Below, one piece after another: positions 2,140 to 61,120 of a stretch of DNA of 64,000 nucleotides. The stretch's first letter is position 1. Every line of letters begins with the position of its first letter. The notes beneath the pieces are model-generated. The model had not been told where the DNA came from. It saw only the letters and a list, made by a program, of their open reading frames with translations, and searched no databases. Position numbers and translations under genes: made by a program. The DNA is from Holothuria leucospilota (lineage: Eukaryota): positions 36,034,802 through 36,098,801 of the forward strand of contig CM055964.1 in assembly GCA_029531755.1 (NCBI GenBank), read 5' to 3'.

Positions 2140-2290
2140 TCCCCCGTCTCATTGGTCCCCTAACCCTTACCATAACCTTAACCCGGGGGACTAATGAGAC
2201 AGGGAACTAATGAGAGGGGGGACTAATGAGACGGAATAATGAGCGGTTGCCTAATGAGACGGGGATTACTGAGACGAATTACGCTAAATG
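2140..2290. repeat. Degenerate telomere-like repeats (ccctaacccttaccataaccttaaccc) centred between inverted tandem motifs: gtctcattNgtcccc x2 upstream and gggRactaatgagac x5 downstream.
   Basis: ccgtctcattcgtcccccgtctcattggtcccctaacccttaccataaccttaacccgggggactaatgagacagggaactaatgagaggggggactaatgagacggaataatgagcggttgcctaatgagacgggg. Confidence 0.75.
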
Positions 2291-5200
2291 GGGGACCAAG
2301 GGACGGGAACCAATGGGACGCCGGGGTACTATAGAGCGGATCCTCTCCATACACTGGCCAGGGGGCGCAAAGTGAAGGCAGACGAAAAAAGAAAAATTGA
2401 GAAAAAGATAGGAAAACAAAGAATAAGAAAGGAAAATGAAAGCTTGCGTACTTTTCGCGCCCCTCCGCCTCCTAGGAATTGTTAAGTCGTGATGGGAATT
2501 AGAGCACTTAAATTGAGCGGTATGGTACGGTCATTTTCTTTTGTTGTAAGGGGCTCTGGGGGCGCACGTCGAGTCCCTTAACGACCCTTGTGACGCCACT
2601 GCTACAACGTGCTGACTCTGATTTCATCTTTATGGGCAGTCGGAGTATCAGTATGGTTCATACGTCGAGCGGATAGTGATAATACACAGACAAAATGTTT
2701 ACTGAATCAGTCTGTTAAAATGACAGTTCTGTTTCTACTTCACTTTTGACCTATATGTTTCTCTTTGCATGCGCCCACGCGTCTCAGTATCATCGGAAGG
2801 TGCCCGCTTGCAACAGGGACTCGGACAGAGTTAGCCTTTGTCAGGGCTTTTCTGGCATTTATTATCCCTCCTTTGTTATTTCGATTCGAATATTTGCATT
2901 CACCTAGCCGGCCTGGTATTTACTGCGCCTCCACAGATCTAGCCTCGGCATCAAGCGTAGCGCATACTGGGGGGAGTATAACACAGAGGAGGTAACAGCC
3001 AGTGTTTACAGGGGGAGGTGAAAGAAACTTACGCCGGAAAGACTCGGCAGAGGCTAGGACAGAGTTAGCTTTTCTATACTAGAATTTTTGATCCGCGTGA
3101 TAGAATGCCTATAGGGGAACCGCCTAACTGTATTTTGAGATCGAAAATCAGTTTTGTTTTCCTAATAGGGCCTAATGGAGGACAATCTCTTCTCCTGCAT
3201 TGCTGTACTATGTGGTGTTGTAGCAAACTTCGATAAGCAATCCTTGATAGTTAGATAACGTGCCTACCTATATAATCCATGCGATATTGTCTCCCGCTAA
3301 CTAATATAGCTAACTGGCGATAGAACTGGGACACCGGGACAGCATAGCCCAAACAAGCCCGGCTACCCAAGGAGGCGAGGCCCCCGGAAAAAAATTTCGC
3401 CACCGAGAAGATAAAAAATTACTTCTGCCAGTCTTAATGCATTTTAGTGTGTCTTGCCTCCTCTGAAAATCCTCCCCCCCCCCCCACGTAGAAGCTATAT
3501 ATCTCGCCTTTTCATACCTTGTCTGACTAAGGGCGTGAACCAAAACCGGGGACAGCCGCGATCGAACTGCCAGGCAGTTCGAATCTTTGCCCTTTGAAGC
3601 ATTTCACCCCCTTTGTTGATTCTCGTATGGCTACATGGCCTGAACCAGGAGTAATTGCGGCGATTTGTGTTGCAACGTGGAAAGGGTTGAAAAAACCACC
3701 AAAAAGAAGAAAAAAGGTGTATTTTCGTATAGGCCTACACGGGTTTTTTCACTAGGTGTTGTATGGGAAATTTCCCGGGGAAATTTCCAGAAGAAAGAAT
3801 AAGTTTGGAAGTCGGAACACTGCGGAAAATTCAGGAATTGGAAGAAGTTTTTTTGTTGTTTTATTCAAATACAAACCTTTTATCTTGTTATGAGGTTCGC
3901 CCCTGATGAAACAGCGGCGAATAGCACACTGGTAATGTTCTCGGAAGTTCACGAAATGACCATGGTTATACTTGAGGATGTATTTTGAGTCTCGGACAAG
4001 TACGTGTTTAGGGTGCTTTCAAAAAAGCAATGGTCAAGCTTGATACCCCCTTGTCAATGATCAGTGCCCCCCTCCCCCGGGGTTGTATCAATAAAAGGGA
4101 TTGGAAACACGGGGAAACGAAAAAGCCAAACAAATTTTAATATCACAATATCCACGCAATAGTTGAAATAAGTATGAGGCTAGTTTGCTGGAGAAAGATT
4201 CATCTAAAACGTCCTGTTGAAATTGAAAACAAATTTTTCAAAATGGTTAAGAATAAAAATCTTGTCAAATATTTCAATATTATCAACTGAGCTGTTTCAT
4301 TTTTAACCAGTCTTTGTAAAGGTTGAATCAAATTTAGTCAAACCCAGTTCTGGTTCATGCCCCAATGGATAAGATATAAGTTTAGAGTTCTGTGGCAACT
4401 CTCATTGTTACATGGGGATATTCCAATGCGCGCAAAACGCCCCGACAAATTGGTTTTTCATGGTCAATAGAGGTGAATATTACTGTCGTTGACAGAAAGT
4501 TTAGTGAAAAGAAAGAGATTCAATTCCCCTCAACCAAAACACCATAAGGATAATGCCTTATAGCCTAAGTCTACAGGCAAACATTAGCAAATACTGGGTT
4601 TTGTCATAAATTTGAAGGTACTCTGTCCTCATAACCAAATTATTGGAGGGGACTGCATTCCCACAACTTCACCAGGTTTAGCTAATATCACTTTAGTTGA
4701 CCAAATCTACATGAAGATTATGTAGGTTTTACCTTACCAATCAGATTATAGAGGGAAGGTACACTTCTGCCGGGCTGTCTTTTTGATCACCGAACTCCTA
4801 CTCCTGTTAGTGTGCGTGCGAAGCGCTTGAAAAAAATCGTTTTTGATGACTTTTACGTCATCGGAAAGTCTAACACTCGCACAAGTATCACCAGGTATTA
4901 CAATTTTTGCCAAAATATCAATTTCGTTCCTTATTTTGAATAACATATATTAGTTGCGTGTCAAGCAAGAACTCAACATTGCCGGCCCGATAGGCCTATC
5001 CGTTAATTGTAGTTGAGATAAATCAACTGATTTATAGACAAATGTAATTTGTGCAAGGCCCGTGAGGTAAGGAGCACTACATATCATGTGCTTGTTTGTT
5101 TGTGATGATCCTCCCCAGCACCAGCGTAACTGAAGGGGGGCAGGGGTGGTCGCCCCCCCCCCCACTTGGCTTCCGGGGATGGTCTGTCGGTACATTTGCT

Positions 5201-6230: not shown

Positions 6231-6368
<138 letters not shown>

Positions 6369-6625
6369 GTTTTCTACCAGTTTAGCCCTGACTAAGTGAG
6401 ACTGTAGGTTTCTTGGTTGACGGTATATAACCTGAGGGGGACTGGAAAGGACATTCATTAGGTTAGGGGAAAGCTGTAAAATGTGGAAATATTTGTTTAT
6501 AATGGATCTAAGGTTAGGGAGTCTAGGATTACGTGTAGAACCTGGACTCTTATATAAGGGACACCAAACATGTTCTTAATATAATTAAAGAAATCAATGA
6601 CTCTGGGCCTCTCCCCCAAGGCACC

Positions 6626-7153
6626 ATGATGTTTACCATTGACGTAAAATCAATGTACCCTAGCATGCCAAGATCTCTAGGAGTGGAAGCGGTTAAAAGA
6701 GCTCTGGAGGAGAGGGAAACAAAAATTCCATCAACAGAAAATATCTTACGTTGTCTCGATATATGTCTTAGGGAAAACAATTTTGAGTTTAATGGGAGAC
6801 ATTTTACCCAAATTCACGGGACTTCCATCGGTCCGAAGATGGCACCGGGATATGCTTGTTTAGGGATGGGTCTTTTTGAGGAGGAACTCAAGTCTAAATT
6901 ACATCCTAATCAACTACCTTTTAAGTGGTATAGATATATAGACGATATCTGGGGGTTATGGTTGCAAGGGGAGGAAGAATTTCTAGTTTTTGTTAATGTG
7001 ATGAATAGCCTTTACCCAGGGGTTCTAGAATTTACTTATGAATTAAGTGATTCTGAGGTATGTTTTCTTGATCTTCGCATCAAATTGGAAGGCGGAGTAC
7101 TGACTACTGATCTGCATACTACCTTCCAATCTCAACCTTTACCTACATTATGA
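6626..7153 (+). pseudogene. Reverse transcriptase domain fragment of the Penelope-like element.
   Basis: The 175-aa ORF contains FTIDVKSMYPSMP, GTSIGPKMAPGYACLG, YRYIDDIWGLW and FLDLRIKLEGG. The N-terminal part of the RT is missing and the frame is broken downstream. Confidence 0.8.
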
Positions 7154-7503
7154 CTCGTACCATAGTAATTGTACGAAAAAGGGAATTGTATTTAGTCAGG
7201 CTTTGAGGGTCAAAATGATATGCTCTGATCCAGAAAAGACCCAACAACATTTCGGGGAGCTTAGGTCTAATTTTCAAGACAGAGGTTACCCCTCCTCCAT
7301 CGTAGACCCAGCTTGCGAAAGGGTTCAAAATCTATCCAGAGAGGACCTTTTGGCTGGCAAAGGTAGGAGAACTCGGAAGCCTGTTAGGGCCCCCCTTGTT
7401 GTTACACGTAATCCTAGACTCCCTAACCTTAGATCCATTATAAACAAATATTTCCACATTTTACAGCTTTCCAAGAAACCTACAGTCTCACTTAGTCAGG
7501 GCT

Positions 7504-7758
7504 AAACTGGTAGAAAACGTCAAAAATGTTCACAAGGGTTGTTATAAGACCCATTTTAAGAATTGTGTTACCTGTAATGTCCTACAGGAAACTGACAGAG
7601 TTTACAGCAATGCTACCGGAGAAACGTTTGCCATTTTTAGCACCATAACTTGTACGTCGGTAGGGGTGGTTTACTTAATTAACTGTAAGGACTGTGGGAA
7701 ACAGTATGTGGGTGAAACGGGAGGCATCAATGTAAAAGATGTGCGTACCGTGAGTTAA
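7504..7758 (+). pseudogene. GIY-YIG endonuclease domain fragment of the Penelope-like element. It lies in a different frame from the RT, separated by a linker ORF at 7203-7505 in a third frame.
   Basis: Translation ..KTHFKNCVTCNVLQETDRVYSNATGETFAIFSTITCTSVGVVYLINCKDCGKQYVGETGGINVKDVRTVS* carries the GIY...YIG-like motifs (VYLI ... YVGET) and a CxxC zinc-finger-like motif, as in PLE endonucleases. Confidence 0.7.
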
Positions 7759-7979
7759 TCCTCTTTTTTAACCTTTTCGATTTGGTTCGTTCGCTTTTCT
7801 TAAACTTTTGGCTTGGGCTTTTCTTTGTTCGTATTACGGCCCTATGTGAAGCAGCTATGCTCAGTGTTATTCGTTTTTTGGTGACCAAGGATAGCAGAAC
7901 TATCCGAAACGTCCTGTTTTTTACAGTCTTCTGCATGGGAAATTGGGTAGATCTACAGGAACTTCTAGTTTTTTGTTTT

Positions 7980-8112
<133 letters not shown>

Positions 8113-13000: not shown

Positions 13001-13473
13001 AGGACAAGCATGGAATGACCCAGGAGTCTGTCTCTGGCCTTTGATGTGTGTCCAGGGGCAATATGATCGTTTTGCACTTATTAGACCACAGATGTCACAA
13101 TTTAATACCTTTGTAATCATAGCCTGTCCCAGACTGTGACCAGGCGGTCGGTGTGATGATGCATGGGGATTGAGAAGGAGGCTAGATCAATGATGGTATG
13201 GGTTGTGTATAGGTTTTTGATACAATAGTATCACATAAGCTGTCCAAAATGGGCCCGTGGGCTGGAAGGTCACTGAAAAATGCCATACAAAGGCAATTTA
13301 GTAATTATCCAAAGTCTAAAGCACTTATCGTAAGCTCTTTCTAATTGAACAAGGAGCTACAGCTATGTGTAATTTTTGGATAAGTGCTGAATTTATTTGG
13401 GGGAAAGTGGGGACAAGGAAAAGTCTGAGCATTTCCCTCACGACCCCGTACTGTCACCACTGTTTACCGTGTA

Positions 13474-13736
13474 CACTCTAAAAAAAATCTGGTGAAATTT
13501 TCACCAGATTCCGTGTTCATATGCTACCCACACAGTCCTGGTTAATTTAACCAGGAATTCTTATTCGACTTAACGAAAAACTGGTTAAAAACTAGAATAA
13601 TAACCAGGTATTTGGTTAAATTCACCGGTGTATTGGTTCACATGACCATTATTTCCTGGTGAAATAAATAACCAGGATTGTGTAGGTGGCATATCAACAT
13701 GGACTGGTGAAATTTCACCAGACGTTTTTTAGAGTG
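13474..13736. mobile_element. MITE of about 263 bp with roughly 35-bp TIRs (CACTCTAAAAAAAATCTGGTGAAATTTCACCAG ... CTGGTGAAATTTCACCAGACGTTTTTTAGAGTG), possibly flanked by TA.
   Basis: The terminal inverted repeats are visible directly. Internally AT-rich with further sub-palindromes (ggttaatttaaccagg). Confidence 0.65.
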
Positions 13737-15504
13737 TACTTAATTGTAAGGGTACATTCACGCGAATCGAGCTGAGATTTTGTACTTACACCTCATGGCC
13801 GTCGAAGAAGGGTAAATTTGTTGCATATGGGTTAAATAAAACGAAAAAGTAATAACCATTATTAGTTTTGAATACCTTTCAATATATTTGATTAGATGCG
13901 AAGACACTTATCCTATATGTGTTTCCTGGGGGGGGGGGGGGGCAAAAGGTATCTCGGCCCCCTCAGTCAAATGATTGGAGGCCCATCTCCCTTTCCCTCA
14001 CCCCACTTCCTAAGCCTATGCATACAGGCATATTTTTAGGGAATTTAGGTCTGACTTAAATGTGTCATTTGAGAGGACCACAGGCGGTATGGGAAGACAT
14101 TTTACAAATGGCTGAAGTTTTTCTTTCCCTACTATTTCTCTGATTGGAAAACAGGTGGGGTGGGGGTGGAAATCCCCCACATTTTGAAGGGTGGACACAT
14201 AATCAACTAGAACTCCTGTTTTTCACCCTTCTTTCCTTAATGCCCCTCTTTCCTTTGAAACTGACGCCCAATACTGAACTTTGTCCTGAAAATGGTTTTC
14301 GTTTTAAAATCTGCATTAGCTAACTCGGAAGGGGGAGGGGACAATGAACCCCCGTCTTATACACCTGTGGAGCGGAGAGTTAGCTGTCAAGGGACGAGGG
14401 AAGGATACTCTAGCAGTCAAGCTTCCATGTTTAAAAGGCATGATATTTGGCTTGGCTTAATTCTAGTTAAAATTCGACGCGGAGTGGCGGAGGACAAGCG
14501 TACTAGGCGCAAGGATGATTTATGGGCCCGGGGTCACACCTTCGGGCGTTTTAGTCTACCATGGGTGAAGTGCCAGTAGGGAGGAAAGGGATTCACACCT
14601 CCTAAATCCACCACTGGTTTAAGCAATTGACAAACATAAAGGTAATAATGGCTAACGTCCGCCGTTTCGAAGTCCGATGCCGACGCAGGCTATTTAATTT
14701 TAACTGCATCGAGTGAGGTACATTTCAATTTTTGCTTGACTTCATATAGTTCAACGAAATCAGGGCCAGGGAGGGGCTCATCGAGAACACAATACCACAA
14801 TACCGCCTTGACTTTTCTTCTAGTGCTCAGAGGGTAGGTAACGAGGCAAAGGTCGGCTAGTCGATCCCCAATCCTACTCTCGGGACATCCATTTGACGTC
14901 CTCATTCGACGAATCAGAATATATCCCCAGTATTAGGCCACATTCCCAAAGGCTGGGCGAGATAACTGAAGAATCCTTGCTTTGCATCGCTGCTCAATAG
15001 CTGAACCGAGCAAAGACACGAAGCGGAAAGATGGGACAACTTCCTTGGTCTGACAATCAGAAATCCATTTAAATCACTAACTTGCAACAGCCATGCCGAA
15101 CAAACAATTCTGAGCCACCAGCAAATTTCCAGGTATTTCTTTATTGTCAAAGCGCCTGTTAAGCCACCAGAAATAAGGATTTCGTTCTTTTGTTGTTTCT
15201 GATATACAAAAGAGAGATTTGAAACTAAGAAGGGTTTATTCTGTTGCAAACTGATTAACACTTCTTTTCAATAAATACAAATTGGTATTTTACCAATCGA
15301 TGTTGTTCCCTACTTTGGATTTTATCATTGTACCTGCTACTTTGCCGGTGTCTGTAAACATCCTGCTGATGTCCGATGATGATGTAATCACACGAAAGCC
15401 GTCTCTCGTAACTTAGCGTAAGAGTAACATACGCAAAGAGGGTGATGAGAGTATGTAAAGCAGCAACCGTAGGAATGTAGTTAGGACCTTACTTTTTTAA
15501 TTTA

Positions 15505-21912: not shown

Positions 21913-22078
21913 GTCTTGCCAATAGACCCTTTTCCAAACAGCAACTTCAAAGGATTATGGGATAGACTTTAAGTACGCATTTTTTTGTCCACAGTAAAAT
22001 GGCATTGACGAAAACAACACACACCAAAACTCGATCCCACAATCCTTTGTAATTGCTATTTGGAAAAGGGTCTATGGC
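21913..22078. mobile_element. MITE family A copy 2 (MVP intron 11).
   Basis: Same TIRs (tagacccttttccaaacagcaacttcaaaggattatgggatagac ... ctcgatcccacaatcctttgtaattgctatttggaaaagggtcta), flanked by TA. Confidence 0.7.
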
Positions 22079-22183: not shown

Positions 22184-22345
22184 ATTACAACAGATCCTTT
22201 ATGAAATAGCAATTACAAAGGATTATGGGCCAGAGTTTTGGGACACATCTTCTTTGCCAATGGCATTTACTGCGGCCAAAAATAGCAGATACCACAACTC
22301 TATACCATAATCCTTTGTAACTGTTATTTGGAAAAGGGTCTACTG
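22184..22345. mobile_element. MITE family A copy 3, left TIR partly truncated (MVP intron 11).
   Basis: ..gaaatagcaattacaaaggattatgggccagag ... ctctataccataatcctttgtaactgttatttggaaaagggtcta. Confidence 0.6.
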
Positions 22346-22906
22346 TAACAGAATATAAAAGAACAAAAGAGATGTACAAATCCACAAATCAGTTTGATAG
22401 TGCCGCTGTTACAGCCAACAGGATTAAGGTATACAACTAGGGCTTGATGTAGCCCAATAAAGGGCACTGCAAAACTGAATCTTAGGGAAGGTTACTGACA
22501 CCAACATTAACCACCGCTTAGGTTGTTTTTTGAGGGGTAGTTTGCCAAACATTAAGAGCATGCCAGCTTTTACAAGGCAAAAGAAACTTTATCAACTCTA
22601 GATACCAGCCTGGAAGAGGATGTGAGTGTTCTCAAGGATTCTATGATCATATTCTATTAATTTTCCCAGCTATCATCGCGCAGGGTACCCTCGGACTCCT
22701 GATATTTCAATCCCTGTTTTAGACATCAGAGCCTTTGACAATATCACGCCCATAGTGCGTAAAATGAAGGCACTAAAAAAGAAAAACAGAATAAAAAAAA
22801 TACACACCTTAAGACTCATAGGTAGATGACAAAAATGTCAATTCCACCACTTCATCCCCAAAAATGCCTCATGCTGTAGCATTTTAACGGTAACTTATTA
22901 TTTTAC

Positions 22907-26857: not shown

Positions 26858-26982
26858 CTGATTGTCTATTCTCAGTATGGCCAAGACCCATCCACTGACG
26901 ATCATTTTCATACTGTATGTAAATCCATATGGTAAATGTGCAATATGCCAATAACTGTTACAGGTCAAGTGAAAACACACAA

Positions 26983-27137
26983 TTGACCCTTTTTGAAATA
27001 GTGATTGCAAAGGATTGTGGGATGCAGATTTGGGGTCATTTTTGTCGATTGATGGCAATTTACTGTGGGCAAAAATGGCACCCACCAAACTCTATCCTAT
27101 ATTTCTTTGTAATCACTATTTGGAAAAAAGGAGTCTA
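26983..27137. mobile_element. MITE family A copy 4, diverged (MVP intron 7).
   Basis: gaccctttttgaaatagtgattgcaaaggattgtgggatgcag ... ctctatcctatatttctttgtaatcactatttggaaaaaaggagtcta. Confidence 0.6.
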
Positions 27138-31460: not shown

Positions 31461-31656
31461 CTGTCTGAGTGTTTCCCCAGGGTAGAGAGGAAATGGATCC
31501 TGTGTAAACCTAATCTCCTGGTCAGCATGACAAAGCTTGACCTGACCATTCCGGTCAACCACCACATCACTGTTTGCATCTCGCAGAGCAGGGTTCTCTA
31601 TGATACAGTAATGTCTTGGTGGTATCGTGATCATATTTTGGGGGTTGAAGAGGACC
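31461..31656 (-). CDS. MVP: Major vault protein, coding exon 2.
   Basis: Acceptor cag at 31659-31657 and donor GTAAGT at 31460-31455. Translation (R)[65 protein letters not shown] aligns to human [26 protein letters not shown]...[25 protein letters not shown]. Confidence 0.88.
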
Positions 31657-31886
31657 CTGCGTTGAGAAAAAAAGAAAACATCGTTTCAAACACAATCTCA
31701 TTGCTCTTTATTACAGTTACATAATCATCATGGTAGTGCCAGCAAGTTGGATCTCATTCAGAAGCATTACTACAGTTAGTGCAGGGTTCTCCACTGGTCT
31801 GTTTTCTGTCCGGGGGCTCTTGTGATCGCCTTGAGGGGTCTAAGGGTAGGGGGACATGGGGAGGGGGTGTCCCCTCCCCTTAAACC

Positions 31887-31906
31887 CCCTAACCCTAACC
31901 CTAACC
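31887..31906. repeat. Interstitial telomeric repeat (CCCTAA)3 flanked by inverted G-rich palindromic arms (gggggacatgggg ... ccccatgtcccc), in MVP intron 1.
   Basis: ccctaaccctaaccctaacc lies within gggtagggggacatggggagggggtgtcccctccccttaaaccccctaaccctaaccctaaccccatgtccccttcccc. Confidence 0.85.
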
Positions 31907-33037
31907 CCATGTCCCCTTCCCCTTTGGGAAAATTTTGACAATTTAGGGGGGCTTAGATTGCAAATGGTGCAATTCTACGGCCTTGTTCTTAGCCTTCCCT
32001 ATGTGTTTAAATCTGGGCATTTTGTGGGCATTTTTTTTTTGCACATTGCATTTTCTTAATATCTTTGACTTTACTTGCAGATCTGAAGCTCTAGTTTCCA
32101 CTTGGACGTATTCAAGAATGTAATAGTTCACTTTAATGTAAATTTCGGGTGAAAATCGGGAAACCTAGGGGACAAAACAGCTAGTGGAGAACACTGTTAG
32201 TGATAAAGGAACAAGGCAGAGAGAAAAAAGGGGGGGGGGGTGTGTTGGTGACAACTATTCTGACACCAGCATAAGTATTTCATTATCCCAACATCAAGTT
32301 GAAGTCATGAGGCCATAGTGTTTGACCCAACATCTACGATGTGGACTGTATGATTGATGCTGAGTAAATGAATATTTGAATCCTATCCTTCATTTGGCAT
32401 TACTTAAATTCTTTTACTTCCTTGTTAATGTCCCTCCCCACTCTACACTCTTTCCCCCTTCCCATCATACTGATGTTTTAAAAGCTTTTTACATTATGCC
32501 CTTTTAATTTTTTTTCACCAATATGTCACAACTACATGCCACGTTTTTAGAATATGACCAACATTTAATATAATTACTGTACAGCTATGGCAGCTGGGCC
32601 CCATTTCATGAAGAGTTATACTCTATCTCATGTTTGATCTATCATAAAATAGTACTATTGAAATGGTTTGAATCAACAGGTGGGGTACAACGGAGGGGGG
32701 ATGTTCCCCACTTCTGAAAGTGCAGAGGATTTATCCCCTCAACTTCTTTCCAAAACCCAAATGAAAATAGCAGGCACATGTGTTTGATTCCATAGCTTGC
32801 AATATGAATTCAATGGAATCAAACTTTATAATGATGGAAATGCCATTTAAATTAAAATTATAAATTTAAATTGTGGGGAATTGATTCAGATGGATTACAC
32901 CACAGATCATCTCGCCTCCAACTTTTTCCACGGACCTTGAGGGAGCCCTGGATACCTCTCTTCTAGGGTTTTGCTAAATTCGCACTTAGAAATAGTTCTG
33001 CTTAAGCCCATGACCCCTCCCCCCCCCACTTTTTAGA

Positions 33038-39309: not shown

Positions 39310-41295
39310 AAAATGGGTCATTCTCTGCCAACTCAACAAATTTTCAGAAAATCATGGTCGGGCACCGACCCAGATTTTGCTGAAAAAATTCCCTAGTGTC
39401 GTTCAAGTAGTAGATAGAACACACCAAAAATTTTAGGTCAAAATTCTTAGCCGTTTGGGAGTTACGGCCCATTGAAAAGTGGCCCAAACCCCCTTCTTTG
39501 CATGCCCAAATTGCATGGTCCACATCTCGGTCATTTTTGAGGGCCTATATCTATACAGAAAATAAAGATACAATGCTGAAAACACCTACCTGGGATAATT
39601 TCTGCCCAAATTTTCAGAATCTGGCATCAAAAACACTGTATCTGGCTTAATTATGAAGAGAATGAGCTCTAAACATTGCATTTCATTTTAGGCGTCAATG
39701 TGATTTATGATATTTGGACCCCTGTGGTTCAATCGACTTCTATCAGATAAGTACCATTTTTCATATACATAATATCTGTTGGGTGCACTTTGCTCTCACA
39801 AAGTTAAGGACCTTTAACAACTTCCATGACAAAATGGTTGGGGGTCAAACATGGTCCCAGAGCCAAAAAACCAAAATTTTGATGTTTTTCGGGTTGACCT
39901 TTGACCTTGTTTATCACCTCCCATGAACTTGAAAATTTTTTTTTCATTAGCTCTAACCCCCTTTTATATTTAGTTAAAATTTCAGAGAGGGGTTTTTCCT
40001 CATTCTTGCCAAATCATTTTTTGAGTTTTGGTAGAAGGTGGTCAATGTCACATACTGTACACAATGTACAGTATGTAGGCCTACTGTACATATGCATATA
40101 GTACAAACTACTCATGTAGCACACATGACCTTACATCATGGCCTGTTTGTATAATTTCAACCACAGAAGTAATACTATTTTTATTTAAAGTTATCTACTT
40201 TGGAAAAGACATTTTAAGTAACTTACAGTACAAACTTGTAATAATTGTACTATTAAATTTAACAGTATGCACTGTATGTACAGTATACAGATACTGTATA
40301 ATACAGCACTTTACACATATTAACAAATGTCTAAGAAATCAAAGGGGCTGTCGTGCCCATTTAAGACTTGTGGAAAGATATATACTTATTTTTAAAGCCA
40401 TGAGCTGTGCTTAAACAAGAATAATGATCATTAATTGTATTACCACACTGCAAACAAGGTATATGTGAGCTATTGGGCTACACTTGTGGTACACTCACTA
40501 CTAATTTCTGTATATACATAGTGTACAGTATATACACAGTATATACACTGTACACTGCTATGTGAAATGGTGCACCACCTACCCAACTCAAAGATTTTTT
40601 AATTAAAAATGGGGGGAAACCCCTCTCTGAAATTTTAACCAGATATAGAAAAGGGATAGAGCTTTTGGTAGAAAAAAATTTTAGTTCATGGGAGGTGATA
40701 AACAAGGTCAAAGGTCAACCTGAAAAATATCAAAATTTTGTTTTTTTGGCTTTGGGACCATGTTTGACCCCCAACCATTTTGTCATGGAAGTTATTTCAG
40801 GTCCTTAACTTCGTGAGAGCAAAGTGCACCCACCAGATATTATATATATGAAAAATGGTACTTATCTGATAGAAGTTGGTTGAACCACAGGGGTCCAAAT
40901 ATCAAAACTCACATGGACACCTAAAATGAAATGCAATGTTAAGAGCTCTTTATCTTCATAATTAAGCCACATACAGTGTGTCTGAGGCCAGATTCTGAAA
41001 ATTTGGGCAGGAAATACCCCAGGTTGGAACTTATAGCTTTGTATCTTTGTTCTCTGGGAAGTTATAGGCCCTCAAAAATGATCGAAATGGCATGCGCACA
41101 AATTGGGCATGAAAAGATGGGGTCCGGGCCATTTTTCAATGGGCCATAACTCCCAAACCGTTTGGAATTTTGACCTGAAATTTTTGGTGTGTTCTTTCCA
41201 TAAGTGGAACTATGGTTCATAAAAGTTTCAGCAAAATCTGAGTCGGTGCCCGACCGACCTATTTGTTGAGTTGGCAGAGAATGACCCAAATATAA
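39310..41295. repeat. Large inverted duplication (hairpin or foldback) in MVP intron 1. The arms of about 770 bp lie at 39310-40075 and 40520-41295, separated by a spacer of about 445 bp rich in tgtacagta motifs.
   Basis: The left arm (ctctgccaactcaacaaattttcag...ggcaccgacccagattttgctgaaa...) reappears as a reverse complement in the right arm (..tcagcaaaatctgagtcggtgcccgacc..ttgttgagttggcagag). The mirrored pseudo-ORFs 39154-39396(+) versus 41062-41319(-), and 39901-40101(+) versus 40478-40711(-), confirm the inversion. Confidence 0.9.
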
Positions 41296-43404: not shown

Positions 43405-43562
43405 CCATAGACCCTTTTCCAAATAGCAGTTACAATGGATTGTGGGATAGAGGTTTGGTTCACATCATTTTTGGCCACAGTAAATTGCCATTGACAAAAA
43501 TGGTGTACACTAAAACTCTATCCCATAATCCTTTGTAATTGCTATTTGGAAAAAGGTCTATG
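43405..43562. mobile_element. MITE family A copy 1, about 158 bp, with TIRs and flanking TA (Tc1/mariner or Stowaway-like).
   Basis: The TIRs are GACCCTTTTCCAAATAGCAGTTACAATGGATTGTGGGATAGAG and CTCTATCCCATAATCCTTTGTAATTGCTATTTGGAAAAAGGTC, with TA on both sides. Confidence 0.7.
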
Positions 43563-44484
43563 TTGAAGCTCCTGTCTAATCACCCAAACTTTCCTTGACA
43601 AGCTTACTGAAGTAACTCTTGTAATGCATAATAATTTTGGGAGGAAGAGTTACCTGTACTGCTGAGTTTGTTAGTGAGAATCAATGGTTTTCCTCTATGT
43701 GTCACCTTGATGCAACAGAGATGCAATATTTCCCTTTCATACTTTGAATCTAGATCTATCTGTTGCCAAATCACTGGCAGCAACTACTTTGAGCAGTGGT
43801 CATAAAGTAGCCCCCATAATTCAGTGTTGAGTAGCTGAGGGCTAGAGTGTCTGGGTTAGGGGTAGATCAAACTGGGTATCCACAACTTCTCTTTCCGTGA
43901 AATTCCATGCATAAAATTAAATTCTGTTTTTTGCCAAGTTTTTCCGCAGTGGACAATCCTTGGCCCTACTTCTCATAAGGTAGACACAACTCAAGACTAG
44001 GGAACTTGAGCCAGCATTCTAACTCACAAGGTACACCTTGGGTGACCTGTGTAGGATTTGTCCCTCTCTCTCTAAATCCAATATTTTCATTTTGACAAAT
44101 TTTTCTGAAATGGAAGAAATCTGACTCAATTTTCACCCCACACCAGTAACCTGAAAATACACAGGGTCCATAGGGTCCCATATAAACTTTCAGTATACTC
44201 ACCAGCACTGGGGGACTGAAATTCTGGACAAGTATGCTTTGTAGTTACAAAAAGTGTAAGGGTTTATGATTGGGGTGGGGGTTTCTATGCCTAAAAGAGG
44301 CTTTCAATACCATGTAAGCCCACCTAGATGCCTCTCGCAGTACTTAACCAACCATCAGTCATCACGAACAGTTGACAATATAATGTTCACATATAATCTT
44401 TACACCCCAACCACAGACTCTGCACACAGTTTAACTAACTGATGAGAAAAATCCACCTCAAAATATAATATCAGTTTTACTAAC

Positions 44485-44645
44485 CTTTCATGATCCTGTC
44501 GGATGTAAGTCTGTGGACCTACTTCTACTCTGGTGACATTGGTGTTATGGTTGAGCACATGGATGTAAAAGTAAGGTGGTATTCTGTAGATGGATTCACT
44601 GCTATTAATCTGCTCCTGGCCACGTCTTTGCCCGTCACGACTCAT
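44485..44645 (-). CDS. MVP: Major vault protein, coding exon 1. ATG at 44645-44643; donor GTTAGT at 44484-44479; ends in phase 2.
   Basis: Translation [53 protein letters not shown](R) matches the conserved MVP N-terminus (human ..[36 protein letters not shown]..). The start codon was verified on the plus strand as cat at 44643-44645. The split codon AG+G gives R and joins exon 2 in frame. Confidence 0.8.
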
Positions 44646-49700: not shown

Positions 49701-50510
49701 AAATCTCCTCTTATTGCATTACAAGCACCTCTGAAGACGTTTTATACTATATATAATAACTATTACAAACAATAGGTAAAGCAAGGCGAAGTTCTCCTTG
49801 AATTCCACAATTCACTAACAAAAATATTGTCACATGATCAAAATAGGCCATTCATGAACTAGAGTGACAGGATACACCCACTTTGTTTGGGGTGACTGCC
49901 TACTGCCTTTAATATGTACGGACTTGCTGAAGACAAGCTCCGAAAAATGAACAATTTGAATACATCATATTTTTTCTGCCTGTCATTTAGAGTTTCCAAG
50001 CAACATAATATGCCCGAGGTATTACTTTTCCAAAGACCCGTGACGAAAGGGTATGTCAACTACAATTTTTTACCCTAATCCAGTGGCTAATTCTCAAAGT
50101 GGTACCGTCCTCCGGAGGGCGTTGGGAAGTCTCAGGTGGGCGCTACAGAGTACATGGAGAATAGGGGCACTGACACTGATTTGGGGGTCCATGGTGATTA
50201 AGACACATCACTGAAGCAATTTAGGACACAATAAGGCATCCAGGGTGTCTGTTCCTCCGCTTCTCACTAAAATAGTGAACGTTCGTAATCTCGCAGAGTT
50301 ACACCACAGGCGTTCGAAACACTACGTACATATACTACACACTATACATATATAACACACGGTCGTGCAATAGTCTAGTATAACACACGGCTGTGACGTC
50401 GCAATCACTGCGCGTACGTACAAACTATGCCGCAAGTCAATAATGATCAACGCAACTTTGGGGATCGCACATTGCATACCGTATATGGCAAGCCGAATGT
50501 TCAATAAATA

Positions 50511-51380
50511 GATAATCCAAGATTATAGGTCGAGAATGCAAGATTATCGGCCGAGAATCCAAGATTTTCGACCGATTATCTTGGATTATCAGTCGATAAT
50601 CCAAGATTATCAATGATAAACCAAGTTTATCACGAGATAATCCAAGATTATCAAAATAACTTGGACTATTGATCGATAATCCAAGATTATCGACCGATGA
50701 TCCAAGATTATCAAATTAATTCGGTATATCAGTCGAAAATCTTGGATTATCTAATGATTTTAGTGTACCTCATTCGATAAACTTGGATTATCGATTGATA
50801 ATCCAAGATTATCGTCGAGAATCCAAGATTATCAATTTTTTTCCGATAATCCAAGATTATCGGTCGAGAATCCAAGATTATCGGTCGATAATCCAAGATT
50901 ATCGGTCGATAATCCAAGATTATCGATCGACAATCCAAGATTATCGACCGATAATCCAAGATTATCGATCGACAATCCAAGATTATCGGTCGAGAATCCA
51001 AGATTATCACATTCACTTTGATAATCCTAGTTTATCTGTTGATAATCCAAGATTATTAAAAAAAATTGATAAACCCGGTTCATCATCCGAGAGTCCAAGA
51101 TTATCGTTTGATAATCCAAGATTATCAAAAATTATTTTGATAAACCTGGTTATCGGTCGAGAATCCAAGATTATTAAAATATTTTTCGATAATCCAAGAT
51201 TATCGGTCGAGAATCCAAGATTATCGAAATATTTTTCGAGAATCCAAGATTATCGGTCGATAATCCAAGATTATTAAAATATTTTTCGATAATCCAAGAT
51301 TATCGGTCGAGACTCCAAGATTATCAAAATATTTTTCGATAATCCCAAGATTATCGGTCGAGAATCCAAGATTTTCAAAA
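50511..51380 (+). repeat. Satellite block I of about 40 copies. The 21-bp unit is GGTCGATAATCCAAGATTATC, with a higher-order variant of about 52 bp containing an AAATATTTTTC spacer.
   Basis: Direct tandem repetition is visible in the sequence. The unit core GATAATCCAAGATTATC is an imperfect palindrome made of two inverted GATAA motifs. Confidence 0.95.
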
Positions 51381-51839
51381 TTTCAGTACAGTTCACTGAA
51401 GGTTTTTTCAGTAGCCTATACTGAATCTTCCGTGTTTTATTATACACCAGTTCACCAGGGCATGCGATGAAATGGTCCAAAATTGAGATAAAATGGATCA
51501 CAATATGTTATTTTTATCATCAGTTCTGTCGGTTGTGTTATCACCATTGCTATACAGAGAGGAGAGAACTTCTCTGCTATCGATCGATACTTTTCTGGGT
51601 ACAGTATCACGTCTGCTCCATGGGCTGCAACGGTAAGACGCGTATCATAACGTTGTCAGCATAGGCTTGAATAGCAACTCATAAAACGTAGCTACATCAA
51701 TTCCCCAACGGTCTTTCCTATGCAGCACGACAGCTCACGTAACCTTCCCACCAGGACCTTCGCTAGAGAGGGATGTGGGGATGTAGGGCCGTCGCTAGAG
51801 CGGGATGGGGTGTGACACCATCCCCCCCCCCCCCAAAAA

Positions 51840-56249: not shown

Positions 56250-57470
56250 AATTATCATGGATTGTCGTTTGATAATCTTGGATTCTCGACCGATAATCTT
56301 GGATTCTCGACCGATAATCTTGGATTCTCGACCGATAATCTTGGATTATCGAAAAGTATTTTGATAATCTTGGATTCTCGACCGATAATCTTGGATTATC
56401 GAAACATATTTTGATAATCTTGGATTATCGACGGATAATCTTGGATTATCGACCGATAATCTTGGATTCTCGACCGATAATCTTGGATTATAGAAAAATA
56501 GTTTGATAATCTTGGATTATCGACCGATAACCTTGGATTATCGACCGATATTCTTGGATTATCGAAAAAAAATTTGATAATCTTGGATTCTCGACCGATA
56601 ATCTTGGATTCTCGACCGATAATCTTGGATTCTCGACCGATAATCTTGGATTCTCGACCGATAATCTTGGATTCTCGACCGATAATCTTGGATTATCGGA
56701 AAAAAATTGATAATCTTGGATTCTCGACCGATAATCTTGGATTCTCGACCGATAATCTTGGATTATCGGGAAAAAAAATTGATAAGCTTGGATTCTCGAC
56801 CGATAATCTTGGATTCTCGACCGATAATCTTGGATTATCGAAAAATATTTTGATAATTTTGGATTATCCGTCGACCGATAATCTTGGATTCTCGACCGAT
56901 AATCTTGGATTATTGAAAAATATTTTGATAATCTTGGATTCTCGACCGATAAACCAAGATTATCGGTCGATAATCCAAGATTGTCGGTCGAGAATCCAAG
57001 ATTATCGGTCGAGAATCCAAGATTATCGGTCGAGAATCCAAGATTCTCGACCGAGAATCCAAGATTATCAATCGAAAATCTTGGATTATCTGGCCAAATG
57101 TGCAACAAAGTGATATTCCAAGATTTTCGCGTGATAAACCAGGTTCGACGAGCCGAATGTTCATTAAATAGATAATCCAAGATTATCGTTCGATAATCTT
57201 GGATTTTCGTTCGAGTATCCAAGATTATCAAAATAATATTGCCTATCGGGCGACAATCCAAGATTGTCTGGATAAACCTCGATTTTCATTTGATAATCCA
57301 AGATTATCAGTTGATAAACCTGGTTTATCATTGATAATCCAAGATTATCACGAGATAAACTTGGTTTATCATTGATAATCCAAGATTATCGACTGATAAT
57401 CCAAGATAATCAGTCGAGAATCTTGGATTCTCGACCGATAATCTTGGATTATCAGTCGATAATCTTGGAT
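56250..57470 (-). repeat. Satellite block II of about 55 copies of the same 21-bp unit, mostly in reverse-complement orientation (CGATAATCTTGGATTCTCGAC) with internal orientation switches.
   Basis: Orientation flips occur at about 56945, 57060, 57160 and 57410 (ccaag versus cttgg cores). The ORFs 56488-57261 and 56574-57113 are frame artefacts of the 21-nt (7-codon) periodicity. Confidence 0.95.
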
Positions 57471-57574
57471 TTTCTATTTATTGAACATTCGGCTTGCCAT
57501 AACCGTACGTAGTAGACGCGTAGCTAGCAAACGACAAACCATGGAGCACGGACAAACTCCAAAACACAACTTAA

Positions 57575-57879: not shown

Positions 57880-58055
57880 TAAAACAAATAATGAATGTTT
57901 TTCATTCGTGCGATAGTACGAATAATTTCATTCGTTGAAAGATTTAACGTTCTATTCAACTCGGCTTCGCCTCGTTGAATAGAACGTTCAATCTTTCAAC
58001 TCATGAAACAATTCATACTATCGCACTCATAAACATTCATTATTTGTATAACAAT
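57880..58055. repeat. Long palindrome with arms of about 85 bp centred near 57965, directly abutting the (TA)n run.
   Basis: Left arm ..gtgcgatagtacgaataatttcattcgttgaaagatttaacgttctattcaactcggc and right arm gcctcgttgaatagaacgttcaatctttcaactcatgaaacaattcatactatcgcac are reverse complements with few mismatches. Confidence 0.85.
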
Positions 58056-59394: not shown

Positions 59395-61120
59395 AATTTG
59401 ACCCCTGCTCACATCAGCTCATGTCACATGACCTTTAAACCGAAACTTGAATAACCACAAAAAAATGAAAAAAAAATAAAACGAATGAGAAGGGATTTAT
59501 CTGTGCTTCCTCCCTTGTAATGACATGTTTACAAAGTTTCAGTTTTTGACCTCTGGTGACCTCAAATGGCTTGTGCCCTCCACAAAAAACAATAGGGTTT
59601 TTCCTCGCACCATAACACATCCACATACTTAGTATAAAATCTATCCAAGCTTCCTACCTTGAGATACTGTGTAAACAAGGTTTTCAGACTTTGACCCCTG
59701 GTGACCCGAAATGACCTTTGACCTCCACCAAAAACTATACGCTTCTTCCTCGCACCATAACGCATCCACATACTTAATATGAAATCAATACAAGCTTCCA
59801 ACCTTGCGATATGGTATAAACAAGGTTTTCAGAGTTTGACCCCTGATGACCTTTGACCTCCACCAAAAATAAGAGAAATCTTCCTCTCACCATACCACAT
59901 CCACATACTTGGTATGAAATCTATCCAAACTTCCTACCTTGAAATATCATGTAAACAAGGTTTTCAGACTTTGACCTACCGGTGACCCCAGATGACCTTG
60001 ACCCCCACCAAAAACAATAGGGTTCTTCCTCTCACCACAATGCATCTACATACCAAGCATGAAATCTATCCAAGCTTTCTAACTTGAGATATCGTGTAAA
60101 CAAGGTTTTCAGATTTTGACCCCCGGTGACCCCAGATGACCTTTGACCTCCACCAAAAACGATAGGGTTCTTCCTCTCACCACAACGCATCTACATACCA
60201 TGCATGAAATCTATCCAAGCTTTCTAACTTGAGAAATCATGTAAACAAGGTTTTCAGATTTTGACCCCCGGTGACCCCAGATGACCTTTGACCTCCACCA
60301 AAAACGATAGGGTTCTTCCTCTCACCACAACGCATCTACACACCATGCATGAAATCTATCCAAGTTTTCTAACTTGAGATATCGTGTAAACAAGGTTTTC
60401 AGATTTTGACCCCCGGTGACCCCAGATGACCTTTGACCTCCACCAAAAACGATAGGGTTCTTCCTCTCACCACAACGCATCTACATACCAAGCATGAAAT
60501 CTATCCAAGCTTTCTAACTTGAGATATCGTGTAAACAAGGTTTTCAGATTTTGACCCCCGGTGACCCCAGATGACCTTTGACCTCCACCAAAAACGATAG
60601 GGCTCTTCCTCTTACCACAATGCATCTACATACCAAGCATGAAATCTATCCAAGCTTTCTAACTTGAGAAATCGTGTAAACAAGGTTTTCAGATTTTCAC
60701 CCCCGGTGACCCCAGATGACCTTTGACCTCCACCAAAAACAATAGGGTTCTTCCTCTTATCACAATGCATCTACATACCAAGCATGAAATCTATCCAAGC
60801 TTTCTAACTTGAGATATCGTGTAAACAAGGTTTTCTGATTTTGACCCCCAGTGACCCCAGATGACCTTTGACCTCCACCAAAAACGATAGGGTTCTTCCT
60901 CTCACCACAAAACATCTACATACCAAGCATGAAATCTATCCAAGCTTTCTAACTTGAGATATTGTGTAAACAAGTTTTCAGATTTTGACCCCTAGTGACC
61001 CCAGATAACCTTTGACCTCCACAAAAAACAATAGGGTTCTTCCTCTCAATATGGGCCATCTATGTACCAAGTTTGAGAACTGTCCAACTTTCCCTTCTTG
61101 AGATATCGTGTTAACAAGCT
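59395..61120. repeat. 145-bp tandem satellite of about 12 copies. The first three copies are more diverged.
   Basis: The string agattttgac recurs at 60111, 60256, 60401 and 60546, giving a period of 145 bp. Unit consensus: ..GACCCCCGGTGACCCCAGATGACCTTTGACCTCCACCAAAAACGATAGGGTTCTTCCTCTCACCACAACGCATCTACATACCAAGCATGAAATCTATCCAAGCTTTCTAACTTGAGATATCGTGTAAACAAGGTTTTCAGATTTT. Confidence 0.95.

Follow-up and report, generated by a model that had tools for sequence, protein, structure and literature searches.

Short telomere-like tracts between inverted repeats in Holothuria leucospilota: candidate telomerase repair scars in hairpin-prone DNA

In the present study, two short telomere-like tracts, referred to as locus A and locus B, were found between inverted repeats in the window (the whole 64-kb stretch of Holothuria leucospilota DNA that was analysed), together with a third, degenerate tract. 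Herein, we propose that each is a short interstitial telomeric sequence (ITS) that was inserted independently where DNA prone to form hairpins had broken, a proposal that we judge to have about an even chance of being correct. Under this proposal, the common layout of inverted flanks with a telomeric core is best read as reflecting a shared mechanism and not a shared ancestry. First, an inverted repeat prone to form a hairpin or cruciform would break at its centre or close to it. Second, telomerase would add a few repeats to the broken end, and end joining would seal these repeats into the chromosome. ITS scars are a known kind of feature, and inverted repeats are described as established break-prone sites (PMC10164571, PMC10622511). 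As judged from sequence, the tracts at loci A and B would be insertions made by telomerase, the palindromes would have pre-existed, and hairpin breakage would have been the trigger. The three tracts are as follows.

2161 to 2184, plus strand: degenerate tract of locus A, TAACCC TTACCA TAACCT TAACCC (21/24), exactly at the junction of two inverted modules.
31887 to 31907, plus strand: perfect tract of locus B, (CCCTAA)3.5, found by TRF with 100% matches and by pattern searches.
63204 to 63240, plus strand: third telomere-like tract, degenerate (CCCTAA CCTAA CCCCAA CCTAA CC...), score 21, in the same orientation as A and B.

The original prediction had described perfect CCCTAA units between inverted flanks at locus B and a degenerate tract of about four units between inverted tandem motifs at locus A, and both descriptions were confirmed. 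Its view that such tracts are truly telomere-derived was likewise borne out, as all three lie far above the shuffle expectation. The tract of locus A, TAACCCTTACCATAACCTTAACCC, has 3 mismatches to (TAACCC)4, with 0.00 such matches expected in shuffles, and its score of 19.5 exceeds the shuffle maximum of 13.5; (TAACCC)4-like 24-mers with at most 3 mismatches occur twice in the window versus a shuffle expectation of 0.00. The telomeric 18-mer of locus B was found once in a pattern search of the window versus 0.06 expected, even with 3 mismatches allowed. In terms of the units used to define short ITSs (about 4 or more TTAGGG units with less than 1 mismatch per unit), locus A has 4 units with 3 mismatches and locus B has 3.5 perfect units, borderline on count, its 24-mer being within 3 mismatches. 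The motif is assumed to be that of the host telomere by analogy with the sea urchin, in which the telomere is (TTAGGG)n (PMC3308324); the window itself includes no chromosome end.

These counts bear on an explanation without telomerase, in which slippage and mutation would have acted on CCCTAA-like seeds in C-run-rich low-complexity DNA, the position within palindromes being incidental. The surroundings of locus B do consist of G-runs and C-runs with short spacers, its left arm carrying TAAGGGTAGGGGG, which pairs with CCCCCTAACCCTA, and mini-hairpins of G-runs and C-runs without a telomeric tract are common in the window (40 versus 4.5 expected). However, two (TAACCC)4-like 24-mers are present where shuffles give none, besides the third tract; the arrays flanking locus A hold no CCCTAA-like seed; and comparative data in the literature point to a one-step origin of short ITSs, as opposed to gradual growth like that of a microsatellite (PMC7215372). 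We consider slippage a very unlikely origin.

The setting of locus B is given by the following features.

31461 to 31658, minus strand: coding exon 2 of the major vault protein (MVP) gene, identified by tblastn with human MVP (Pfam Vault_2, E = 3.6e-24).
44478 to 44609, minus strand: MVP coding exon 1, identified by tblastn with human MVP, bounding the 12.8-kb intron.
31842 to 31868, plus strand: left G-rich palindrome arm of locus B, holding GGGGACATGGGG and the left half of an inner hairpin, GGGGAGGGG.
31869 to 31879, plus strand: loop end and right half of the inner hairpin (..GT CCCCTCCCC).
31880 to 31908, plus strand: putative 29-nt insertion TTAAACCCCCTAACCCTAACCCTAACCCC (filler and tract), on the basis of a virtual deletion.
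31898 to 31924, plus strand: right C-rich outer arm ACCCTAACCCCATGTCCCCTTCCCCTT, containing CCCCATGTCCCC.

The DNA of locus B is unique and lies within the first coding intron of the MVP gene, about 190-270 nt from the 3' splice site of that intron. The tract reads (TTAGGG)3 in the sense direction of the gene (minus strand). The MVP exons on either side are intact and colinear and the gene is apparently intact, so that locus B is taken to be an insertion instead of a relic of a chromosome end. The best MVP homologue in the collections has 76% identity, and look-ups with exact proteins for the locus gave either no match or uninformative 1-kb contigs. This setting weighs directly on the view that the tracts are relics of terminal telomere arrays, left in a subtelomeric window or at a site where two chromosome ends had anciently fused. 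Subtelomeres typically contain degenerate telomere islands that share one orientation, and the window, which is rich in satellites and repeats, does hold three same-orientation tracts in 64 kb. Nevertheless, a former chromosome end cannot lie in an intron between intact, colinear exons, where the perfect 21-nt tract of locus B is found, the tracts are merely 21-37 nt long, and three tracts would share one orientation by chance with a probability of 25%. Each tract has a single orientation, and head-to-head (TTAGGG)n-(CCCTAA)n arrays were not found in the window. A terminal origin is, in our opinion, highly improbable.

The hairpins at locus B are consistent with the insertion of repeats into a pre-existing palindrome. 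GGGGACATGGGG (31850-31861, plus strand) and its complement CCCCATGTCCCC (31905-31916) belong to an outer inverted repeat of 27 nt with 81% identity (31842-31868 and 31898-31924). Thus, the inverted flanks described earlier around the tract do exist, but the left flank is not adjacent to it, being separated by a second, inner hairpin, GGGGAGGGG-GTGT-CCCCTCCCC (31858-31879), followed by TTAAA. Virtual deletion of 29 nt yields a perfect 17-bp stem with a 4-nt loop, the restored hairpin being GGGGACATGGGGAGGGGGTGTCCCCTCCCCATGTCCCC, and the edges of the insertion are ambiguous by a 4-nt CCCC found on both sides. A 17-bp stem of this kind was obtained in 20 of 1000 shuffles that kept the G/C runs (p ~0.02 under a composition-favourable null), a modest and post hoc value. 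The tract interrupts one arm of the palindrome and is not placed between newly copied arms. At the G-strand junction, ...ACATGGGG|TTAGGG, the GGG (3 nt) at the presumed 3' end of the break is in register with the repeat, and a short non-telomeric filler is present at the other junction.

On the repair-scar reading, the G-run/C-run palindrome GGGGACATGGGGAGGGG-gtgt-CCCCTCCCCATGTCCCC in MVP intron 1 would have been broken in its right arm, and the G-strand 3' end ...ACATGGGG would have provided a GGG that aligns in register with the template of telomerase. After the addition of three repeats, the end would have been rejoined via the filler GGTTTAA to give ...ACATGGGG|TTAGGGTTAGGGTTAGGG|GGTTTAA|GGGGAGGGG..., and because the tract is perfect, the event would be recent. 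Among horse ITSs, approximately 78% have 1-6 nt in register and approximately 18% have random filler, inversions or inverted duplications flank 4.5% of the informative loci, and the inverted duplications measure 38-53 bp; 31% of human ITSs are intronic, and 229 ITSs are counted in the human genome (PMC7215372). The tracts described here resemble the short ITSs studied by Nergadze, Santagostino and Giulotto (PMC7215372, PMC8537989) in having few exact or slightly degenerate TTAGGG units at internal and partly intronic positions, and also in the in-register GGG of locus B and the filler at its other junction; a documented minority of the published insertions carry flanking inverted duplications. 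They differ in that all two to three tracts lie between inverted repeats, compared with the small share (4.5%) of informative horse loci, in that their density is hundreds of times the mammalian average, and in that the host is an echinoderm. To our knowledge, ITSs have not been surveyed in echinoderms.

Neither the window nor any of the collections scanned contained a second copy of the flanks of locus B; the hairpin of this locus, with or without the insert, gave 0 matches in metagenomes, and its outer flanks gave 0 in viral contigs. The homology of locus B to GGGGACATGTCCCC sites at 5.7-5.8 kb was rejected as not significant (P = 0.04-0.16).

Locus A is built differently, from two modules that meet at the tract.

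2064 to 2160, minus strand: left arm module of locus A, with 16/23-nt units, GGGGGGCTATAGACACTATCC and about 15 nt in minus-strand order, the array tip at 2160 facing the tract.
2185 to 2361, plus strand: right arm module of locus A, with about 9-10 units, then GGGGTACTATAGAGCGGATCC and about 15 nt; its array tip (2185) points towards the tract.

Arrays of GTCTCATTNGTCCCC / GGGGACTAATGAGAC in inverted orientation form the flanks; the arms, 34-35 nt long, are 86-88% identical (self-BLAST E = 5e-6), and each module combines tandem 16-nt units with a conserved anchor, GGGGnCTATAGAGCnGATCC. The left array has 2.2 copies of the 16-nt unit and the right array about 6-10, in inverted orientation. In the right arm, three inner GGGGACTAATGAGAC units are followed by degenerate units and two outer GGGRACCAAKGGGAC units. 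The arm is a dispersed module of about 100 nt that also occurs in two metagenome contigs, L017 and L025, which represent one independent outside locus sampled in two assemblies. The left arm carries GGGGACCAATGAGAC (C-type, as in L017) and GGGGACGAATGAGAC (G-type), and it is nearer to L017 (94%) than to the right arm of its own locus (86-88%), so the two arms are not fresh copies of each other.

This last result is relevant to the idea that the repair event which inserted the tract also generated the inverted flanks, through fold-back or snap-back synthesis, the palindromes not having pre-existed. Horse ITS insertions with inverted duplications of 38-53 bp are documented (PMC7215372), foldback priming at double-strand breaks is an established route to inverted duplications (PMC10622511), and the arms of locus B are short (12-27 nt) and nearly perfect around a perfect tract, which is compatible with a single recent event. 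However, the arms of locus A differ systematically, the tract of locus B interrupts one arm, and tract-less mini-hairpins of G-runs and C-runs are as frequent in the window as noted above, GGGGACATG occurring 5 times versus 0.47 expected. Flanks made by the repair itself are therefore, to our judgement, quite unlikely.

Returning to telomerase repair at pre-existing hairpins, the two dispersed-repeat modules of about 100-180 nt at locus A lie tip to tip, a now degenerate and presumably older four-unit tract filling the junction exactly. Either the centre of a long inverted repeat would have broken, or two transposon ends would have been joined in gap repair, and telomerase would have been the source of the filler. 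No in-register nucleotides were found at the presumed 3' end (...TCCCCC|GGGTTA). Herpesvirus-type terminal telomeric repeats and parvovirus-like hairpins were also weighed as candidate classes and were dropped, given that no open reading frame scanned within about 3 kb of locus A matched a Pfam family, that locus B is intronic, and that orientation and architecture are unfitting.

The outside copy informs the question of whether locus A is mobile as a whole. L017 and L025 contain a solo arm without any inverted partner within 1 kb and with non-telomeric sequence at its tip (P = 0.5-0.7); the module thus occurs elsewhere without a telomeric tract, which indicates that the tract is dispensable to that repeat. 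All three arm copies lose homology at one common outer point, and the array copy number differs between L017 and L025. The core of locus A and the tip flank of L017 show a marginal likeness (TTACCATAAC versus TTACAATAAC, P = 0.048). An open reading frame next to the array in L017 weakly resembles Tc1/mariner, at scores under the Pfam cut-offs, and terminates in a donor-like GTAAGT site, features that do not fix the orientation of the module; used as a query, this frame returned the same locus again (L025) and a paralogue without the array region (L026). The pattern of the A arm was found at 22 metagenome loci, L017 being the only true relative, and the remaining loci were attributed to an unrelated bacterial motif, an 8-mer array or chance. 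A stricter pattern gave 0 matches in prokaryotic genomes and viral contigs, and a single viral match to a looser pattern was rejected as chance. With one independent outside locus known, a telomere-cored version of the A element could still be common in the source genome.

These observations might be taken to mean that the loci are mobile hairpin elements of foldback or MITE-like type whose loop is the telomeric repeat. Locus A would then be a complete non-autonomous transposon, an idea that is less plausible for locus B. The real dispersed module with tandem sub-repeats, the shared outer end of its three copies, the variable array number and the marginal likeness of core and tip flank all favour this reading, and the high density and single orientation of the tracts would be easier to explain if they rode on elements. 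Other MITE-like families of palindromic structure also occur in the window, as do two giant 21-nt satellite arrays that are inverted to each other. Foldback-type transposons with arms of short tandem sub-repeats include the Drosophila FB and sea-urchin TU elements, and locus A resembles them in its long inverted arms of 16-nt units with an anchor, dispersed and variable in unit number, in an echinoderm host. Unlike these elements, the arrays of locus A face inward to a 24-nt telomeric core, the outside copy is a solo arm, and searches around locus A revealed neither a clear target-site duplication nor a transposase, nor a second complete copy of the locus. The direct repeats flanking it are 4-8 nt long and ambiguous (AGGG / GGCCAGGG), and the 8-nt GGCCAGGG was rejected as a hAT-type target duplication, as it belongs to the inverted arms (CTGGCC). 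The open reading frames scanned within about 3 kb of locus A matched no Pfam family (reverse transcriptase or other) and included no transposase. Furthermore, loci A and B have no sequence in common beyond the CCCTAA tract, the sole outside arm lacks a telomere-like tip flank, neither locus has a second copy in the window, and the hairpin of locus B is absent from the metagenome and viral scans. We regard a complete transposon as unlikely. If the ITS reading is true, the loci would be ordinary repair scars and markers of past breaks, and a small warning against taking every telomere repeat with inverted flanks for a mobile element.

A small family of hairpin elements had been suggested at the outset. 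The arms of locus A are indeed a real dispersed repeat, but loci A and B do not form one family: the only sequence common to them in self-BLAST is a 21-nt CCCTAA match, and the flanks of loci A and B and the third tract are mutually unrelated. Further copies with the same flank architecture, searched as sequence-defined families, were found neither in the window nor in the metagenome or viral scans.

The footprint of a retroelement was considered as well, because a Penelope-like element (PLE) is present in the window.

6468 to 7755, plus strand: fragment of an endonuclease-positive PLE (reverse transcriptase and the start of GIY-YIG), with an inverted partial copy.

The element is bounded by (AT)n at 6239-6367 and 7979-8110. 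Its part at 6539-7755 shows 60% identity over 89 aa to the C-terminal region of the homologue P0122, for which the precomputed Pfam annotation includes the GIY-YIG domain PF01541, and its closest relatives are from Holothuria. According to PMC8557442, PLEs of the Athena/Coprina type are without endonuclease, are located at chromosome ends and carry reverse-complement telomeric repeats and a hammerhead ribozyme; endonuclease-deficient PLEs carry (ACACCC)n or (NNNCCC)n stretches; and endonuclease-positive PLEs typically have a (TA)n target and an inverted truncated copy. A footprint of an endonuclease-deficient element of this type, with reverse-complement telomeric repeats at its 3' end, is suggested by the PLE fragment 4 kb from locus A, and on the plus strand an element end followed by (TAACCC)n at locus A superficially has the layout of an Athena 3' end. 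However, the sole PLE of the window is endonuclease-positive and lies in (TA)n with an inverted truncated copy, as described for the other class. No reverse transcriptase frame lies beside locus A, locus B is inside an intron of an intact gene, and the stretches reported for endonuclease-deficient elements are (ACACCC)n or (NNNCCC)n. Rfam at the gathering threshold detected no hammerhead ribozyme and no telomerase RNA in the whole window, and at E<=1 no hammerhead was found around locus A, locus B or the PLE, only sub-threshold miRNA-like hairpins appearing around loci A and B. In comparison with the Athena/Coprina elements and Terminons of PMC8557442, which lie at termini with a hammerhead and no GIY-YIG, the present case shows an endonuclease-positive PLE 4-24 kb away, no ribozyme and one intronic tract. 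The PLE lies 4 kb from locus A and 24 kb from locus B and is connected to neither. An Athena-type footprint is scarcely credible and has already been effectively refuted. Structured-RNA readings (telomerase RNA template, hammerhead and pre-miRNA) were rejected too, with only far-sub-threshold matches to miRNA models and fold z-scores of only -2.2 to -2.6.

The placement of the tracts between inverted repeats exceeds chance, as had been anticipated. Relative to random non-satellite positions, the inverted-repeat flank scores have p = 0.006 at locus A, 0.014-0.03 at locus B and 0.07 at the third tract, where the repeat is weaker and not G-rich; as background, perfect inverted arms of 12 nt or more, separated by at most 60 nt, enclose only 1.2% of the window. 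Two to three ITSs per 64 kb correspond to hundreds of times the mammalian density. This high local density and the common orientation stay unexplained under the ITS reading, and they hint at an added regional or element-borne process. We put forward, as a decidedly speculative extension, that in this genome hairpin-forming inverted repeats, including abutted ends of foldback transposons, might be preferred substrates of telomerase repair, with dense ITSs marking palindrome centres, or that a foldback class with a functional telomeric loop might exist. Reports on fold-back inversions and hairpin-capped breaks in yeast gross chromosomal rearrangements (PMC10622511, PMC7467729, PMC3974649) describe break-prone inverted repeats at which telomerase competes or combines with other repair, de novo telomere addition being an alternative outcome, similar to the mechanism proposed here. 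The events in those reports are chromosome-scale and in yeast mutants, whereas the present loci involve tens of nucleotides in a colinear chromosome. If the pattern of the three tracts holds genome-wide, it would link the fragility of palindromes with repair by telomerase in an animal lineage whose telomerase stays active throughout life. At locus B, the UUAGGG and hairpin block, also a potential G-quadruplex, might conceivably affect MVP splicing from its position about 200 nt upstream of the 3' splice site.

The window contains telomere-like tracts set between inverted repeats at two loci, with a weaker third case. At locus B, TRF recovered (CCCTAA)3.5 at 31887-31907 with 100% matches, and its perfect 18-mer is far beyond chance. 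At locus A, the core TAACCCTTACCATAACCTTAACCC (2161-2184) is degenerate and differs by at most three mismatches from (TAACCC)4, a match that shuffles never produced; as originally noted, this tract of about four units lies between inverted tandem motifs, exactly between two arrays of 16-nt units. A uniform scan for telomere-likeness revealed a third, degenerate tract at 63204-63240 (CCCTAA CCTAA CCCCAA CCTAA CC...), whose flanking inverted repeat of 22 nt is weak (16/22 paired) and not G-rich. The plus strand carries CCCTAA in all three tracts, an agreement with a chance probability of 25%; the telomere repeat of sea urchin is (TTAGGG)n (PMC3308324).

The association of these tracts with inverted repeats is real, though n = 3, because of the flank scores and the low background of the window. 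When the left flank was scored against the reverse-complemented right flank, the fraction of 3616 random non-satellite positions scoring at least as high was 0.006 for locus A, 0.014-0.03 for locus B and 0.07 for the tract at 63.2 kb, and only 1.2% of the window, much of it satellite, is enclosed by inverted arms that match perfectly over 12 nt or more and stand no more than 60 nt apart. Folding energies alone were unremarkable (z -2.2 to -2.6), owing to the abundance of G-runs and C-runs in the composition. The view that the tracts are not random interstitial telomeric sequence (ITS) holds insofar as the flank scores and shuffles mark a real, non-random feature, and they are best filed as short ITSs.

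Locus B lies within the 12.8-kb intron between coding exons 1 and 2 of the major vault protein (MVP) gene, with the following features.

31850-31861, plus strand: left flank motif GGGGACATGGGG, with its reverse complement at 31905-31916
~44609 to ~19420, minus strand: MVP gene (Pfam Vault, Vault_2 and MVP_shoulder in exon fragments; tblastn with human MVP)
44478-44609, minus strand: MVP coding exon 1 (tblastn)
31461-31658, minus strand: MVP coding exon 2 (tblastn)

The flanks are inverted around the tract, as noted, but the left one does not adjoin it: the 25 nt between them hold an inner hairpin, GGGGAGGGG-GTGT-CCCCTCCCC, followed by TTAAA. The MVP 3' splice site is located 190-270 nt downstream, and the MVP sense strand reads (TTAGGG)3. 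Because the MVP exons on either side are intact and colinear, a former chromosome end at locus B is excluded, and we give very little credence to the tracts as subtelomeric relics. Virtual removal of 29 nt, TTAAACCCCCTAACCCTAACCCTAACCCC (31880-31908), yields a stem of 17 perfect base pairs closed by a 4-nt loop, GGGGACATGGGGAGGGG-gtgt-CCCCTCCCCATGTCCCC, with more, imperfect pairing outward; a split stem of this length was observed in 2% of shuffles that preserved the left-hand G-runs and the right-hand C-runs. That the same repair event made both the inverted flanks and the tract, a reading mainly for locus B, we consider quite unlikely.

The junctions of locus B, read on the G-strand as ...ACATGGGG|TTAGGGTTAGGGTTAGGG|GGTTTAA|GGGGAGGGG..., include in-register bases, and their layout is what has been published as the signature of ITS insertion by telomerase at double-strand breaks (PMC7215372). 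Among informative horse ITS loci, 1-6 nt are in register in ~78% and random filler is present at ~18%, while 4.5% (3/66, Table 5) show flank inversions or inverted duplications; 31% of human ITSs are intronic (PMC7215372). Replication slippage as the source of the tracts appears highly improbable.

Scanning metagenomes for a two-unit pattern from the arms of locus A gave 22 loci, of which contig L017 is the sole true relative. In this contig, three 16-nt units precede GGGGGACTATAGAGCTGATCC; it matches the left arm with 94% identity over 35 nt and the right arm with 89% over 46 nt (E 4e-9 to 1e-8), as well as the distinctive anchor at 2323-2343. Another assembly has this locus, as L025, with two units. 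The three-way alignment defines a discrete module of units, anchor and ~15 nt, beyond which homology fades in every copy. The module in L017/L025 is solo; no inverted partner was found along its 1 kb of contig. Bases at the array tip do not resemble a telomeric repeat (P = 0.5-0.7) and are only marginally similar to the locus A core (P = 0.048). At locus A, two modules stand tip to tip, with the junction filled exactly by the telomeric tract. The arms are not recent copies of one another: identity is 86-88%, the right arm has T-type inner units (GGGGACTAATGAGAC), and the left arm holds one C-type, L017-like unit (GGGGACCAATGAGAC) and one G-type unit (GGGGACGAATGAGAC).

Mobile foldback elements with a telomeric loop might account mainly for locus A, where the module does belong to a family. 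No Pfam match, reverse transcriptase (RT) and transposase included, was found among scanned ORFs within ~3 kb of the locus, and this explanation seems unlikely. Inner arrays would make locus A a complete foldback/MITE-like element whose spacer is telomeric; outer arrays, the arrangement in Drosophila FB and sea-urchin TU elements, would by analogy make it a pair of element ends that meet across an ITS. A weakly Tc1/mariner-like HTH ORF was also observed in two paralogous metagenome contigs (L017, 333-797; L026, 231-563), ending in both at a GTAAGT donor-like site, and in L017 the 16-mer module lies ~45 nt inside the putative intron past this site.

The tracts are not a new element family. Loci A and B had been suggested to form one hairpin family, yet self-BLAST between them gives the CCCTAA match only, and neither belongs to a repeat family with a second copy in the window. 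The motif GGGGACATG from the locus B flank is found repeatedly (5 occurrences, 0.47 expected, counting the palindrome GGGGACATGTCCCC or its half), and two of its sites, at 5.7-5.8 kb, are without a telomeric tract and show no significant homology to locus B past the motif. Moreover, GGGG-N(2-12)-CCCC mini-hairpins are ~9-fold enriched across the window (40 against 4.5 expected; e.g. 5713, 5791, 11716, 14162, 32695, 36107 and 63929), so G/C-run palindromes are common here regardless of telomeric repeats.

A footprint of an Athena-type Penelope-like element (PLE) had also been suggested. A PLE fragment (RT and the start of GIY-YIG) does occur at 6.5-7.8 kb, within 6231-8110, 4 kb from locus A and 24 kb from locus B. 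Among named sequences it is closest to those of Holothuria leucospilota (54-67%) and of a brittle star, which makes an echinoderm host probable, and it is 60% identical over 89 aa to the C-terminal region of a homologue (P0122) annotated with a GIY-YIG domain (PF01541). Athena and Coprina are described as endonuclease-lacking PLEs that attach to telomeric overhangs and carry short reverse-complement telomeric stretches beside hammerhead ribozymes, and endonuclease-positive (EN+) PLEs as preferring (TA)n targets, often with an inverted 5'-truncated copy adjacent (PMC8557442). The present element is a textbook EN+ insertion, with long (AT)n tracts on both sides and an inverted partial copy (6468-6537, the 100% reverse complement of 7403-7472). 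Rfam gave no hammerhead and no telomerase RNA in the window or around the two loci. With the element EN+, in a (TA)n-type site and distant from both loci, the suggestion was abandoned, and a PLE footprint has scarcely any probability.

Herein, we propose that the tracts are independent short ITSs from telomerase-assisted break repair at inverted repeats, a proposal to which we assign about an even chance. Breaks would fall at pre-existing hairpin- or cruciform-prone inverted repeats, described as established fragile sites (PMC10164571, PMC10622511); telomerase would add a few repeats to the broken end, and end joining would reseal the chromosome. Breakage at hairpin-prone repeats would explain why one architecture is combined with sequence-unrelated flanks. 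The tracts themselves, their inverted repeats, the position of locus B in an intron, its in-register bases, the family of the locus A module and the dissimilarity of the two loci are shown, whereas a role of telomerase, palindromes older than the tracts and breakage as their trigger are inferred. The tracts would be further examples of known short ITSs, whose context suggests palindrome breakage. The human genome has 229 ITS loci (PMC7215372), and 2-3 per 64 kb is hundreds-fold above that density; either ITSs are very common genome-wide here, or the region is special. Interest is modest unless the link to palindromes and the high density hold genome-wide.

The window is metazoan nuclear DNA in which long ORFs are nearly absent and microsatellites, satellites and interspersed repeats are present. 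The MVP gene appears complete, with a colinear series of at least 14 exon blocks (tblastn, human MVP query), and its top database match is only 76% identical. A ~155-bp self-complementary MITE-like family has at least four copies, all within MVP introns (21922-22075, 22185-22348, 26982-27127 and 43406-43562); self-complementary sequence also occurs in blocks at 13471-13739 and 57884-58047. MVP intron 1 also holds an inverted repeat pair of ~800 bp (39314-40100 and 40511-41288; 82% identity, ~400 bp apart). Two arrays of a 21-nt unit (GATAATCTTGGATTATCGACC), ~0.9 kb each (50484-51383 and 56569-57501), are inverted (71% over 981 nt) and form a giant foldback-like structure, the enclosed ~5 kb of which holds copies of the repeat at 873-1664. 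A 145-bp satellite occupies 59537-61048 (10.5 copies, 90% identity), and GC skew is strongly negative over the final 4 kb.
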